Position numbers and translations under genes: made by a program. The notes beneath the pieces were generated by a model, which did no database searches, had not been told where the DNA came from, and saw nothing but the letters and a program-made list of their open reading frames with translations. Source: Pseudomonadales bacterium (GTDB taxonomy: Bacteria > Patescibacteriota > Microgenomatia > UBA1400 > PJMF01). Taken from it: 64,000 nt of DNA. The stretch spans positions 58,734 through 122,733 of the forward strand of contig JACKFX010000001.1 in assembly GCA_020632255.1 (NCBI GenBank), written 5' to 3'. Positions 77-5,963 of the stretch are shown one piece after another. Numbering within the stretch: position 1 is the first letter of the stretch; every line of letters starts with the position of its first letter.

Positions 77-78
77 CC

Positions 79-118
79 TTTCTTTTCTCTATGCCGTAAG
101 GCATAGAGAAAAGAAAGG
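79..118 (+). terminator. hairpin immediately after tRNA-Leu (ttctctatgcc gtaa ggcatagagaa)
   Basis: Perfect 11-bp inverted repeat with a 4-nt loop, flanked by T/A runs. Confidence 0.5.
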
Positions 119-165
119 TTACAAATGAAAAGTATTTCAACCGCAGGTGGGAGTCTGCACATCGA

Positions 166-229
166 GTCACAAAGTGACACGAGAAATGTATCCAGATACG
201 AAGTAATCTGGGATACCTCTCGTCGGCAC
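166..229 (+). repeat. att-like 64-bp direct repeat, copy A (degenerate tRNA-Leu 3' half plus exact 15-nt tRNA 3' end)
   Basis: Identical to 5712-5775. gaagtaatctggg resembles the tRNA variable arm ggagcaatccttgg. Contains a loxP-like element atgtatcc-a-gatacgaagtaat. Confidence 0.8.
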
Positions 230-233
230 CAGT

Positions 234-1046
234 TTATAAGGGACTCTTGATATTTTTAAGTTTAGGATTAGTTACTTTAGTATATATTTGCGTTGTTCTG
301 ATATTTTGGTGGCCCAATAACTCTTGCACATATCTTACGTCAGTTCCATTCTCTAGCAAATGCGTGGCAAAAGAGTGCCTTAGTGAATGAAAAGTGGCGA
401 TTTTTTTTATTCCTGAATCACGCAAGACATTCTCGAAAACTTTTTGTGCCGTTCTTGTGGTTAGCACTCCACCTCGTTCACTGGCAAAGACAGGATCGTC
501 TCCTACCTTTCCTGCAGTTAAACTCCTCAAACTATCAGTCAAGCTTTCCGGTATGATGCTTATTCGGTCTTTTTGTCCTTTTGCCTGTTTGATATGTATA
601 GTAAGTTCTTCAAGATCTAAATCTCGTACTTTTAATGCAATAACTTCGCTTACTCTTAGTCCTGCACCATAAGCAACTGATAACATAAGTTTGTGTTTGG
701 CATTCTTTACAGTTGTTAAAATTTTGTTTATCTCACTTCTGGATAAAACAATAGGTAAACTGTGTGGTTTTTTAGCTGATTGAATTTCAATTTTTTGTGA
801 ATTTTTTACAACATTGCGATAATAAAACTTAATAGCATTTAACAACAAATTTCTGCTTTGAGGTGAGATACGTTTTTTCTCACAGTGAAGTAGAAAATCT
901 CTAATGTTTTCTTGATCAAGTTCTGTAAATTTATTGTTTTTGAAAGAAAAATACTTTCGTAAACTATAAAGGTAACTTTGTAAAGTTTTGGGACTGTAAT
1001 TTTTAATTTTCAATTCACGTTTTGTTTTCTGAAGCTGTATTTGCAT
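234..1046 (-). CDS. tyrosine site-specific recombinase/integrase (XerC/XerD-like phage-integrase family, 270 aa)
   Basis: ORF translation shows a SAM-like N-domain and catalytic motifs AGLRVSE, HSLRHSFATHLL, LLGH and RTTQIYTKV (R..HxxR..Y). It lacks the extra IntI-specific insertion. The stop codon is 4 nt from att copy A. Confidence 0.85.
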   Translation of the reverse strand: MQIQLQKTKRELKIKNYSPKTLQSYLYSLRKYFSFKNNKFTELDQENIRDFLLHCEKKRISPQSRNLLLNAIKFYYRNVVKNSQKIEIQSAKKPHSLPIVLSRSEINKILTTVKNAKHKLMLSVAYGAGLRVSEVIALKVRDLDLEELTIHIKQAKGQKDRISIIPESLTDSLRSLTAGKVGDDPVFASERGGVLTTRTAQKVFENVLRDSGIKKIATFHSLRHSFATHLLENGTDVRYVQELLGHQNIRTTQIYTKVTNPKLKNIKSPL

Positions 1047-1099
1047 AAGTTATTGAAAATGATTAAAATTGATGTAGTTTTTGCAGATTTGAATTTATC

Positions 1100-1133
1100 A
1101 TAACTTCGTATAACATACAAATTATTATTTAAT
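1100..1133 (+). promoter_or_regulatory. lox-like recombinase half-site (ATAACTTCGTATA + ACATACAA) 54 bp upstream of the integrase start
   Basis: 13/13 identity to the loxP arm and 6/8 to the loxP spacer. The expected inverted arm is degenerate (6/13). Confidence 0.4.
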
Positions 1134-1160
1134 TTATGAAAATATATCGTATAAAAATGA

Positions 1161-1242
1161 GTTAGGCAAAATTCGCTTTACTCATTTTGACTAATGGCCG
1201 GAGCTTTTGTTATTCTCGCCCGCTTCGCGAGCTTCGCCTAAC
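1161..1242 (+). repeat. 82-bp imperfect palindrome GTTAGGC…GCCTAAC, copy 1 of 4 (inter-cassette element)
   Basis: Identical 82-mer recurs at 2059-2140, 3153-3234 and 4154-4235. Ends are the complementary 7-mers GTTAGGC/GCCTAAC. Internal palindromes: tggccggagc and cgcttcgcgagcttcgc. Confidence 0.8.
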
Positions 1243-1325
1243 AAAATGTTATGCGCCATAATAAAAAGCAAAAAATTACAAATTTTTTAATATTTCTGAT
1301 ATTTTTATTCAAATAATTTACACCT

Positions 1326-3363: not shown

Positions 3364-3954
3364 ATGACAGAAGTAAAGCAAGGACAACCAGTTGACCAGG
3401 AACAGTCAGTAACAAAAGATTACAGCATGAGGCTTGAGGATTTGAGAAGAAAGATAGTTCGAGGGAACATAGGTGGTGTAGATGTAGTAAGCGCAGTAAA
3501 TGTCAACGAGCTGGTAGAAAATATTAAACCGGGAATTGCTGCAATCGCTAAAGAGTTGCATGAAATTTATGATTTAGCCCCAGCTAATGTACCGTTATGG
3601 AATGGTAGTGATCAAATGATTAGACCTACTCCTCACATTTTTATGCAAAATGTTATTGTGCTAGATATTGCATCATCAATTAGAGACCAAATTGAAATAA
3701 GAGATCTTCAACAACTACCGCTAAGTCCCAAAGGAAGAGGTGCAATTCCCGGTTTAATGTTGCTGTTAGAATTCGACCGTATTAGAACTCAAGACGAAGA
3801 GGATAAGAAGTTTAATAGTACAACTTGGAGGGAACTGCTTGATTTGTATCATCGATCGCTACAGCCTGTTGGAGGACCAGAACAAACAATTGTTACGAAT
3901 CAAGACTTCAAAACAGCAGTTGAAATTACAGGATATGATCCTGTGCATAAATAA
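3364..3954 (+). CDS. hypothetical protein (196 aa), island cargo
   Basis: Good RBS ggaggtgag 7 nt upstream. No recognisable motifs. Confidence 0.5.
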   Translation: MTEVKQGQPVDQEQSVTKDYSMRLEDLRRKIVRGNIGGVDVVSAVNVNELVENIKPGIAAIAKELHEIYDLAPANVPLWNGSDQMIRPTPHIFMQNVIVLDIASSIRDQIEIRDLQQLPLSPKGRGAIPGLMLLLEFDRIRTQDEEDKKFNSTTWRELLDLYHRSLQPVGGPEQTIVTNQDFKTAVEITGYDPVHK

Positions 3955-4153
3955 TATCTCTTGAACATTGCCAAAATAAGAATAAGGATAAATTGGCTTT
4001 TTATTACGTCTCCGCTAACGCTTCGACCACACTGCGCTCTCCTCCCTTCGGTCGTCGGGGCGTATAACACAGCGTATGCGGTTCGGGGCTCGGCTTGCCC
4101 CTCTCCCATATTTTTGCTTCCGTTGGTCGCAAAAACATCGCATATACTGAAAC

Positions 4154-4235
4154 GTTAGGCAAAATTCGCTTTACTCATTTTGACTAATGGCCGGAGCTTT
4201 TGTTATTCTCGCCCGCTTCGCGAGCTTCGCCTAAC
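4154..4235 (+). repeat. 82-bp GTTAGGC…GCCTAAC palindrome, copy 4
   Basis: Identical 82-mer followed by the 38-bp secondary palindrome (one substitution). Confidence 0.8.
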
Positions 4236-4367
4236 AAAATGATATACTATATCCAGCCAAGGCTGGACGTCGTATATCATCCGGCCATTGAGCGAAATAA
4301 TAAAAAGTTTTAAAATTCCTTTTAGGAAATTAAATTTGCAATTTATTTTTTAAATTATTTATATATT

Positions 4368-5342
4368 ATGATTAATCAATTTGAAGATTTTAAAACATCT
4401 AGATGGCCTGAGCATATTTTATCTGAATATAGAGCTATATTGGATCAAGGAATTTTAGAATTGTCTTCTTTAGAAAATGTTAGGCAATTGAAAGACTTAA
4501 GTCTAACTGAACATGAGGAAGAAAGATTGCAATCTGTAGGTAGAATTATCTTGTGGTCAGATGAGAATCGTGGATTTGGTTACTTGAGTTCATCTGTGAA
4601 CCATGATAGAAAAAAGGAACGCATGACAGCAAGATATATAGCTGATTGCTTCCAGGCTAAAGAATCACCTGTCCAACCTATCATAGTCTTAGTCGATGAT
4701 TTTTATCATTTTTGCCCAGGAAATCCTTCATTAGTAAGCAAAACTCAGATTTTTGATGAAATTGCTGTAGAACAGCTACCATCACAAGATTTTGCCATAG
4801 TATTATCAGGATTCACTGAATCAAGAATATTCACTCAATCAGCTCTTAAGCAAGTCCCTTATCAGGATAATGCTGGATTAGAACTAGGTAAAATAACCCA
4901 ATTTGGTAATGAATTATTGTATTTTGCTTCCAATGGGTTACGATCTTTAATCGAAAAAAATAATGGCAATTTAGATGCTGTTCTGAAACAAATGTCTGAA
5001 GCTGGCAATTTTCCAGAAGACGATGTGAGGTTATTATTAGTTACTAGTTTGCTTCTTCAAGATATGCAAAAATGGCAAAATCTGTGGTACGAGAGTAGGA
5101 AAAAGGGTACACCTTTATACATAGTAGCACCGATGAGTTTTCACGATGCAATGAATAGACTTAATTTTGAGTGGGGTCATGGAGGATTAGACTACCGCTA
5201 CAGAGCATCAAATTCTTTAGGTAATCATGACGAGCCGCCACTTGAAAATAATGTGACAACAGAAAACTATTATAACCAGGGACTGTCATCTAATGATTTT
5301 CAAAGAAAGGTGAGTCCAATTTTAGAAAAATTTAAAAAATAA
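4368..5342 (+). CDS. hypothetical protein (324 aa), island cargo
   Basis: Long ORF with no recognisable motifs. Confidence 0.5.
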   Translation: MINQFEDFKTSRWPEHILSEYRAILDQGILELSSLENVRQLKDLSLTEHEEERLQSVGRIILWSDENRGFGYLSSSVNHDRKKERMTARYIADCFQAKESPVQPIIVLVDDFYHFCPGNPSLVSKTQIFDEIAVEQLPSQDFAIVLSGFTESRIFTQSALKQVPYQDNAGLELGKITQFGNELLYFASNGLRSLIEKNNGNLDAVLKQMSEAGNFPEDDVRLLLVTSLLLQDMQKWQNLWYESRKKGTPLYIVAPMSFHDAMNRLNFEWGHGGLDYRYRASNSLGNHDEPPLENNVTTENYYNQGLSSNDFQRKVSPILEKFKK

Positions 5343-5621
5343 ATTGCGAATATGTTTTGTTGTCGCAAAATTAAAACTTTTTATTACATCGCACAACAGC
5401 GTGTATGAAGTTCAAGAAAAGTGCGTTTATAATTTTCAAAGGTTGCACTTTTTCTTTCACCCAAATTTCGCCTCATCTATAATAAAATAATAAGGAGGTC
5501 GGCGAAACTTCTCATACACGCAAACCGTTATATGAAATTATTTATTTTTCTATTGATTGATAAAAAATTTTTGATAGGCTTTTATTAAGAATAAATATGA
5601 TTTATTATGGGGAGAAATAGT

Positions 5622-5723
5622 ATGAACAAAAAAGGATTTACAAGCATAACTTTGATTGTAGTTATTGTTGCTATTATAGTTTCTGGTGGGTATTTCCAAA
5701 TTGAATTCGGGGTCACAAAGTGA
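5622..5723 (+). CDS. 33-aa peptide with a type IV prepilin-like N-terminus; its last 4 codons lie inside att copy B
   Basis: Strong RBS ggggag 8 nt upstream. MNKKGFTSITLIVVIVAIIVSGG resembles the prepilin leader plus hydrophobic helix, with Thr in place of Glu5. May be the 5' remnant of a pilin gene disrupted at the att site. Confidence 0.3.
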   Translation: MNKKGFTSITLIVVIVAIIVSGGYFQIEFGVTK

Positions 5724-5775
5724 CACGAGAAATGTATCCAGATACGAAGTAATCTGGGATACCTCTCGTCGGCAC
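5712..5775 (+). repeat. att-like 64-bp direct repeat, copy B
   Basis: Identical to 166-229, including the exact 15-nt tRNA-Leu 3' end. Confidence 0.8.
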
Positions 5776-5777
5776 AA

Positions 5778-5808
5778 AAAAATCCGCCTTGAAAGCGGAT
5801 TCTTTTGT
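5778..5808 (+). terminator. hairpin aatccgc-cttgaaa-gcggatt followed by a T-run
   Basis: 7-bp perfect stem flanked by A-run/T-run, immediately after att copy B. Confidence 0.5.
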
Positions 5809-5963
5809 CTCAGAACGTGAATCCCGGTGAGGATAGACCTTCTGAGGTATGCGTATAGTATCAAATTATTATAAGACTGTCAATACTCATATAAATATGA
5901 CAAAAATAGTCAGAAAACGGCATTAAAATTTAACACTTATAAAGACACTAATACTTGGGGAAA

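Follow-up and report, generated by a model that had tools for sequence, protein, structure and literature searches.

A recombinase gene and a co-oriented gene array at tRNA-Leu

We analysed 64,000 nucleotides (hereafter the window) of contig JACKFX010000001.1 (assembly GCA_020632255.1, positions 58,734 to 122,733), which is deposited as a Pseudomonadales bacterium and placed by GTDB in the Patescibacteriota. At the start of the window, next to a tRNA-Leu gene, a tyrosine recombinase gene lies divergent from an array of co-oriented open reading frames (ORFs), and this locus is very probably an integron-type gene-cassette platform. The tRNA-Leu gene is clipped by the window start and present as its 3' part (1-76, plus strand; Rfam tRNA, 42.4 bits, 5'-truncated). 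The recombinase gene is located at 234-1046 on the minus strand and encodes 270 aa (PF00589, 2.8e-41). Beyond it, five ORFs are found on the plus strand, including an ADP-ribosyltransferase-like gene (PF03496, 2.5e-13) and an HNH nuclease gene (PF01844, 3.3e-12). Two copies of a direct repeat of 64 nt, 100% identical to each other, bracket the platform on the plus strand: the first (166-229) is an att-like boundary on the integrase side and the second (5712-5775) is the distal boundary of the island. An earlier note on this DNA, made from the letters alone, had described the tRNA, the repeats, the recombinase and its lack of the insertion specific to integron integrases (IntI), the five ORFs and the insertion of an integron-like structure at a tRNA. 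These raw features were all recovered, and the integron-like logic was strengthened (divergent recombinase, co-oriented heterogeneous cargo, structured sites between cassettes), but the register of the sites and the count of five cassettes had to be revised.

The 3' end of the tRNA (CCTCTCGTCGGCAC, 14 nt) occurs in three copies (64-77, 216-229 and 5762-5775; 0 expected by chance), the second of which forms the last 14 nt of the first direct repeat. Immediately 3' of the tRNA lies a perfect 20-bp hairpin (76-119, plus strand; inverted repeat, 100% complementary), and a terminator-like hairpin (5781-5801) is present 3' of the second direct repeat. Loci carrying relatives of the window integrase are numbered here L001 to L089. 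In the close relative L009, whose tRNA-Leu(tag) is 96% identical to the tRNA-Leu of the window, the tRNA directly adjoins the 3' end of the integrase gene, and a 152-nt segment (79-230) that includes the perfect hairpin is missing. This segment looks like a remnant of the distal end of an earlier copy. The 64-nt repeats and the triplicated tRNA end indicate that the platform resides in an integrative element at tRNA-Leu, and the whole platform is probably itself an integrative island. The enzyme that integrates it at the tRNA may or may not be the same integrase. Among 64 scanned loci, the 3' end of the integrase gene faces a tRNA or tmRNA (Ser, Leu, Ala, Trp, tmRNA) in about 32, at about 10-900 nt from the stop codon in one count and mostly at 6-430 nt, and the target differs between lineages.

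Cassette sites with the order of attC

An 88-nt block beginning with GTTAGGC (GTTAGGC...GCCTAACAAAATG) is present in four copies, 100% identical, starting at 1161, 2059, 3153 and 4154, and is found nowhere else in the 64 kb, where no copy (0) is expected by chance. The intergenic units fold far better than shuffled sequences (z = -3.9 for the plus and -5.5 for the minus strand). The earlier proposal of a conserved structured unit between ORFs therefore held for these four copies and for their strong folding, but not for a unit separating every ORF: none lies between the second and the third ORF, the first copy does not have the 38-nt palindrome, and the unit after the fifth ORF is different.

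By comparison with locus L002 and by motif search, the hairpin upstream of each GTTAGGC was identified as the cassette site. All 19 hits of the motif search fell on the strand of the array. Written out, the site is xxxTAAC-A-CnGyrTATGCG-GTTC-(variable hairpin)-CnCCCAwATT-(variable hairpin)-AACATCGCATAyrCnG-rAAC-GTT^nnnn, i.e. R''(xxxTAAC)-A-L''(11 nt)...L'(11 nt)-RAAC-R'(GTTxxxx), which is the canonical order of an attC site. The inverted core 7-mers, on which the earlier note had based its description of the sites as non-canonical, were an artefact of reading them in the wrong register. What had been taken for a single 82-bp palindrome combines R' (GTTAGGC) of one site with R'' (GCCTAAC), 75 nt on, of the site of an ORF-less mini-cassette; the 38-bp secondary palindrome corresponds to the L''/L' arms of this short mini-cassette site. 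Likewise, what had been named "R-type" and "L-type half-sites" are not recombination half-sites but the two termini of a cassette (3' and 5', respectively), which pair with each other.

Generic hairpin finders (AAC...stem...GTT) returned equal hits outside and inside arrays; because they are non-specific in AT-rich DNA, they were replaced by a covariance model. The seed alignment of 16 sites shows compensatory changes in 7 of the 11 L-stem pairs. A search of the window and 84 related loci with this model (R1), on both strands of 1.18 Mb, yielded 133 matches at E<=1, and every one of them lies on the array strand. In the window, the only matches are at 1949-2065, 4062-4160 and 5391-5533, besides a weak partial match at 1236-1254. 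The longest arrays, with 7-10 R1 sites, are found in L029, L086, L010, L055 and L050.

The repeats could alternatively belong to an ordinary tRNA-integrated island, as REP/MITE-like elements (repetitive extragenic palindromes or miniature inverted-repeat transposable elements) or terminator-like elements unlinked to the recombinase, which would only integrate the island. The position at a tRNA with a 64-nt direct repeat on either side, the tRNA or tmRNA genes near the integrase stop codon in about half of the scanned loci and the strong structure of the units are all expected under such an explanation. We consider it very unlikely, however, since all 116 locus matches of R1 at E<0.01 lie on the strand that does not encode the integrase, upstream of the integrase start, with no match in 655 kb of downstream flank and none in the other 58 kb of the window. 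A repeat spread over the genome and a cassette content fixed among relatives are two outcomes that the earlier note had said would speak against its proposal; the model found no match outside arrays, and cassette content does vary (see below).

From the matches, 110 sites were aligned. All 11 L-stem pairs covary, and the L-stem cells are paired in 94% of cases versus <=35% when the partners are slid. The AAC and GTT triplets are nearly invariant, the consensus of R'' and R' (RYMTAAC and GTTAKRY) is near canonical, and the length varies from 52 to 198 nt. The sites thus combine attC order and conserved structure with variable sequence, as integron sites do. The extrahelical bases that set strand choice in integrons were not found: an extra base inside the L stem is present in only 8 of the 110 sites. 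The asymmetry of the site is instead that of its central spacers, with 1 base on the 5' side (110/110 sites) and 4 bases on the 3' side (85/110). Sites without conserved extrahelical bases are in keeping with an integrase that does not have the domain by which such bases are read.

Composition of the array

The array is composed of four ORF cassettes (named 1, 2, 4 and 5), one of which has two ORFs, alternating with four ORF-less mini-cassettes and followed by a truncated sixth unit, instead of the five single-gene cassettes proposed in the earlier note. All units are on the plus strand. The first mini-cassette (mini0, 1162-1248) has its own site without the L''/L' hairpin, leaving GCCTAACAAAATG^TT, and it is there that the weak R1 match at 1236-1254 covers R'' and R' only. 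Cassette 1 (1249-2059) contains the ADP-ribosyltransferase-like ORF (1326-1892; also matching an ADP-ribosyltransferase toxin in PHROG) and the site 1949-2065 (R1, 81.4 bits); its start, TTATGC, has one mismatch to its R'' (ACATAAC), and its 5' and 3' ends pair at -44.7 kcal/mol. The next mini-cassette (mini1, 2060-2192; 133 nt) is structured and has a short site at 2134-2198 (GCCTAAC...ATT). Cassette 2 (2193-3153) carries the HNH nuclease ORF (2215-2733) and a 74-aa membrane ORF (2813-3037). Its long site (2752-3159) has the arms GCGGGCTAGC and GCCAGCCCGC, which still pair at 12 of 13 positions across 370 nt, and its start (TTGTGT) is fully complementary to its R'' (ACACAAC). The 74-aa membrane-peptide ORF has its own AT-rich leader and lies within the variable-hairpin position of this site.

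Mini2 (3154-3286) is 92% identical to the reference copy. Cassette 4 (3287-4154) contains an ORF without family match (3364-3954) and the site 4062-4160 (R1, 77.9 bits), and its start (TTATAC) is fully complementary to its R'' (GTATAAC). It is followed by mini3 (4155-4287; 97% identical to the reference copy) and by cassette 5 (4288-5527), whose ORF (4368-5342) has no family match either and whose site (5391-5533; R1, 64.4 bits) ends in GTTATAT; here R'' has one mismatch to the cassette's own start, and the two ends of the cassette pair at -46.4 kcal/mol. In the truncated last unit (5528-5711), which no site follows, a pilin-like N-terminal ORF fragment begins MNKKGFTSITLIVVIVAII.... This fragment (5622-5723) is cut by the distal 64-nt direct repeat, which suggests either a formerly longer array or truncation of a cassette by the island boundary.

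Cassettes start with TTRNRY and end with a structured attC-like site. If they circularise at (G/A)^TT, R'' should pair with the start of its own cassette and not with that of the next one. Of 32 positions compared in the window, 30 are complementary between R'' and the start of the same cassette, versus 12 between R'' and the start that follows. Over the related loci, the match is perfect with the own start for 22 of 71 model-defined cassettes and with the next start for 4 of 71. This complementarity extends beyond the core: pairing between the initial 90 nt of a cassette and the 90-nt stretch that closes with its own R'' amounts to -32.2 kcal/mol, compared to -20.6 kcal/mol with the ends of other cassettes (n = 72, p = 5e-9), and the window cassettes range from -26 to -46 kcal/mol for their own ends. 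Neither a MITE nor a terminator would predict it, which argues again for cassettes rather than for an ordinary island with unlinked repeats.

The 133-nt mini-cassette comes after the attI-like region described below and after three of the four ORF-cassette sites of the window. Its start (TTAGGC) is fully complementary to its own R'' (GCCTAAC), and its short site ends in A^TT. Equivalent units, starting with TTAGCC in L050 and L029 and with TTAGAC in L002, also come after sites and end at (A/G)^TT, with a different cassette start next in each case. The units of the four lineages have a common multi-stem architecture in which 14 pairs are kept via two-sided changes, although this count is based on five sequences only. 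Each copy in the window contains a promoter-like motif (TTGACT-18-tgTATTCT; 2085-2114 in mini1), while promoter-like sites in the region do not exceed the level of shuffled sequences (27 vs. 22). That the mini-cassette acts as a promoter is hence a weak hypothesis. It could also be a selfish ORF-less cassette inserting at sites or, as it contains extra GTTA/TAAC duplexes, an accessory integrase-binding element.

An attI-like region next to the integrase gene

Between the integrase gene and the array, a putative attI region (1097-1163, plus strand) contains two boxes that are conserved across loci with integrases 58-100% identical to that of the window. Box 1 is ATCATAACTTCGTATAACATACAA (1097-1120; family form approximately ATCATAAyTTCGTATAAyATACAA) and box 2 is ATATCGTATAAAAATGAGTT (1144-1163; family form approximately AyATCGTATAAAAAyGAGTT). 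A box 2 with terminal AGTT is present in at least 74 of 83 loci; its median distance to the integrase start codon is 118 nt. Right after the GTT, the loci diverge (GTTAGGC, GTTGTGC, GTTATAC, GTTCAAG and others). As in integrons, an attI-like region thus adjoins the integrase gene, with a predicted crossover in GTT, here between G1161 and T1162.

Seven contigs terminate 0-2 nt past the GTT of this region, and two more were recognised by eye (L030 ends 2 nt after it and L078 has an N-gap). With 22 contigs stopping in the 400 nt upstream, only about 0.2 contig ends at the GTT would be expected. Because assemblies break where populations are heterogeneous, the GTT appears to be a natural recombination junction. 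The coincidence of these breakpoints with GTT is again not what an island with unlinked repeats would produce.

Positions 1100-1120 of the window, within box 1, read ATAACTTCGTATA ACATACAA. Compared with loxP, box 1 agrees with the arm in 13 of 13 positions and with the spacer in 6 of 8. It corresponds to a single arm without an inverted partner, unlike loxP, and Cre is not among the PDB matches of the integrase at E<=1e-5, so that no close relationship is apparent. The motif AACwTCGyATA recurs in box 2 and in the L' arms of cassette sites (e.g. L061 and L065). It may be a putative recognition motif of the recombinase, or the likeness to loxP may be coincidental.

Turnover of cassettes between related platforms

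The platform of L009 has an integrase 97-98% identical to that of the window, the same tRNA-Leu and an identical attI, and its array is different. It begins with an ORF-less remnant that holds the right half of the cassette-5 site of the window (93% identical). Then comes G^TTATACGCCATAATAAAAAG..., and homology to position 3287 of the window, the first base past mini2, begins exactly at this junction. Further on, L009 has a different ORF and then another unrelated cassette. Homology between the two loci starts and stops at (G/A)^TT junctions, and these boundaries, like the contig breaks, speak against repeats unlinked to the recombinase. The whole 5' leader and 3' tail of window cassette 4 (3287-3363 and 3955-4154) are common to L009 (9660-9724 and 8927-9137), whereas the ORFs of the two counterparts are unrelated between start and stop codons. 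Judging from this alignment, an ORF appears to have been replaced inside a conserved non-coding frame. Weaker, one-ended cases of a conserved frame were observed in L010, L070, L044 and L055.

Cassettes are also shared between more distant platforms. L024 and L047, whose integrases are 79% and 64% identical to that of the window, have in common a 1287-bp cassette (89% identity), whose position and neighbours are not the same in the two arrays and whose L''/L' arms differ in a compensatory way. In 46 arrays, 174 ORFs share the array orientation and 17 oppose it, and only 5 ORF clusters are common to several loci. The cargo comprises methyltransferases, GNAT acetyltransferases, NUDIX, Fic, OLD-type ATPases and restriction-modification genes, with no Pfam family in more than 3 of 150 ORFs. 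The cassettes are therefore co-oriented, mostly single-ORF, diverse and divergent from the integrase gene, as in integrons. Reading the inverted repeats that flank the ORFs as a shufflon or inversion system was rejected, their arms being cassette-specific and the ORFs co-oriented (174 to 17).

The same turnover bears on the possibility that the elements act as RNA, as structures of 5' or 3' untranslated regions, processing sites or small RNAs of an operon in an otherwise static array. In favour, transcription would run through the elements in the direction of the ORFs, their RNA is predicted to fold well (z = -5.6), every cassette has pairing 5' and 3' ends, and the mini-cassette has its promoter-like motif. 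Nonetheless, a static array of RNA elements is hardly credible: near-identical platforms differ in array content, contigs break at GTT, and identical sites precede different cassettes. In addition, an Rfam scan of positions 1-12,500 at E<=1 matched nothing in the array (Rfam being without an attC family). RNA roles might coexist with recombination, but they leave the turnover, the breaks and the sharing of sites unexplained.

Distribution of the integrase family

A protein search returned thousands of relatives of the integrase; among the 120 matches listed, identity is 72-100% and the length mostly 270 aa, and the few of these with a source name are mostly from Patescibacteria. A scan of species-representative genomes gave 80 loci with an integrase 58-97% identical to that of the window, nearly all in metagenome-assembled genomes (MAGs) of Patescibacteria. 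All contexts that were inspected show the integrase gene divergent from an array of co-directional genes. A scan of metagenomes with attI box 2 yielded one further, more distant platform (L089), and no match to the exact mini-cassette was found in metagenomes. The contigs with an identical integrase (L005-L008) are about 1 kb long, stop in the first repeat and are uninformative on cassette order. Samples in which the identical integrase occurs are SRR28385526, SRR14234118, SRR26387399 and ERZ28655329. One MAG, MGAR01 (Roizmanbacteria), contains two different platforms (L043 and L079), whose integrases are 69% and 59% identical to that of the window.

Integrases from divergent candidate phyla are 58-83% identical. 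Such a level seems high for a gene with a housekeeping role and suggests that the integrase may have spread horizontally. Many integrase-bearing MAGs are labelled Pseudomonadales, Gammaproteobacteria, Atribacterota, Limisphaerales, Actinomycetota or Altiarchaeales (L009, L010, L013, L016, L030, L032, L036, L048, L052, L053, L060, L065, L072, L073, L075, L078 and L088). Given their gene content and the rest of the integrase family, these are probably mislabelled or mis-binned contigs of Patescibacteria, the alternative being horizontal spread.

An IntI-like recombinase without the IntI-specific domain

The recombinase consists of a SAM-like core-binding domain and a catalytic domain (Pfam). Its top family model is that of integron integrases (TIGR02249; 218 bits in two stretches, under the cut-off of 265 bits), followed by archaeal XerA (215 bits, cut-off 220) and by XerC and XerD (about 185 bits). 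The best PDB match is the Vibrio cholerae integrase VchIntIA (2a3v, 8e-44), with two XerA structures behind and XerD far behind. In the alignment, residues 10-195 of the query correspond to residues 11-201 of IntI and residues 198-270 to residues 245-317, residues 195-198 of the query spanning the gap, and both proteins share the C-terminal ...SPL. Residues 202-244 of VchIntIA (about 43 aa), which belong to the IntI-specific additional domain around patch III with the I2 helix, have no counterpart in the window integrase. No relative of the integrase was found among viral contigs, so a phage origin is unsupported.

In integrons, the additional domain of IntI contacts the extrahelical bases of attC. 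According to Messier and Roy (2001, as cited in PMC9668308), IntI requires this domain for its activity; archaeal integron integrases carry it as well (Ghaly et al. 2022, PMC9668308). A 2020 article in eLife regards the I2/additional domain as an innovation that enabled recombination of single-stranded attC (PMC7790495).

A recombinase of this kind might instead serve a double-strand system of Xer/dif type, in which modules would be exchanged between duplex core sites and the hairpins would be incidental. The XerA score nearly equals the IntI score, the I2 region is absent, and AACwTCGyATA provides putative binding boxes in attI and L'. Moreover, recombinases of candidate phyla have been filed as an Xer-related subgroup, "Cand", without cassette function (Smyshlyaev et al. 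2021, PMC8138268). We regard such a system as improbable on account of the sites themselves. No conserved sequence exists to the right of the crossover between cassettes, hence no second duplex arm, and L'' and L' covary although they are 20-370 nt apart. The pdif modules of Acinetobacter plasmids offer a comparison: pdif sites alternate in orientation, unlike the sites described here, which all have one orientation. The two platforms of MGAR01 also argue against a housekeeping Xer.

Proposed mechanism

Under the integron-type reading, the integrase would insert new cassettes at the attI crossover (G1161^T1162), and since new cassettes enter at attI, a co-oriented array would accumulate. Recombination between neighbouring sites would release cassettes as circles. 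In the circle, the first bases of the cassette would pair with its own R'' and with the tail upstream of it, and the long hairpin so formed would be recognised by the recombinase as folded single-stranded DNA, as in integrons. Recombination of a folded strand is suggested by the lack of a duplex arm to the right of the crossover, by the covariation of the distant L'' and L' and by the pairing of R'' with its own cassette start. Possibly, the site is complete only in the excised circle, in which case capture would be favoured over excision.

Several points weigh against this reading. R1 misses the mini-cassette sites and the long site of cassette 2, and these were parsed manually, with the support of the L009 junction and of the comparison with L050, L029 and L002. 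The larger of the two counts of covarying pairs comes from an alignment that had itself been fitted to the model. In the aligned sites, G-T and C-A cells number 26 and 35, so no strand preference is apparent. Perfect complementarity between R'' and its own start is limited to 22 of 71 cassettes, a figure that is probably diluted by undetected intervening sites. Clear bounding direct repeats are found in few loci only (the window, L001, L055 and L058). Furthermore, as the integrase is without the IntI domain, single-strand recombination may not apply to it, and we infer each of the three elements of the mechanism, namely recombination by this enzyme, a single-stranded substrate and circular intermediates, from sequence comparisons.

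Comparison with known systems

The platforms resemble integrons in their divergent integrase, adjoining attI, G^TT crossover and co-oriented, diverse, mostly single-ORF cassettes, and in the imperfect palindrome at each cassette end with the order R''(..AAC)-L''...L'-R'(GTT..). ORF-less cassettes also occur in integrons. In sedentary chromosomal integrons, sites are highly similar within a genome, as is the case in the platforms described here. The platforms differ from integrons by an integrase without the additional domain found in bacterial and archaeal IntIs, and by sites without conserved extrahelical bases but with an asymmetric 1x4 internal loop. Further differences are the complementarity of cassette ends over tens of bases, the conserved structured mini-cassette interleaved among ORF cassettes, the location at the 3' ends of tRNA or tmRNA genes, sometimes between direct repeats, and the Patescibacteria as hosts.

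With XerA and the "Cand" recombinases, the integrase has in common a length of about 270 residues, two domains and the absence of both an arm-binding domain and the I2 insertion. It differs from them in being tied to cassette arrays and an attI-like site rather than to a single dif, in being found twice in one genome (L043 and L079) and in its ...SPL end, which aligns with VchIntIA. The platforms are also similar to tRNA-targeting islands, in that the 3' end of the integrase gene is turned toward the 3' end of the tRNA and the direct repeat includes the tRNA terminus. However, island integrases usually have an arm-binding domain and islands are without arrays of structured sites, whereas the only recombinase of the platform is IntI/Xer-like and its cargo is organised as cassettes.

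Full-text literature searching found no description of integron-like arrays in Patescibacteria, although reports beyond its reach are possible. We tentatively consider that Patescibacteria could harbour a widespread integron lineage whose integrase never had the I2 domain or dispensed with it, the strand and the site being perhaps recognised via the 1x4 loop and a long hairpin formed only in the circle; the ORF-less hairpin cassettes and the frames with swapped ORFs might then reveal that new cassettes arise when a gene is placed in a pre-existing hairpin cassette. Such a family would bear on the definition of integrons, as a large natural family with integron anatomy but without the domain held essential for folded single-strand sites, and would be either a second solution to the same problem or a preserved stage of integron evolution. 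With it, the range of hosts that capture genes as cassettes would come to include the candidate phyla radiation, i.e. bacteria with small genomes. The conserved frames with swapped ORFs and the ORF-less hairpin cassettes also bear on the old question of the origin of cassettes. IntegronFinder finds integron integrases with an IntI-specific profile, and would therefore probably not call the integrases of these platforms.

Other features of the window

Outside the platform, weak, sub-threshold Rfam matches of leader type near 9600 are probably due to chance. A low-complexity stretch (8786-9056) contains, on both strands, ORFs rich in AAEAAQAAQ or QQKQQK, just upstream of a tRNA-Gly gene (9084-9157). 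The latter belongs to a cluster of six tRNA genes (Gly, Phe, Val, Leu, Leu, Arg) at 9084-12337.

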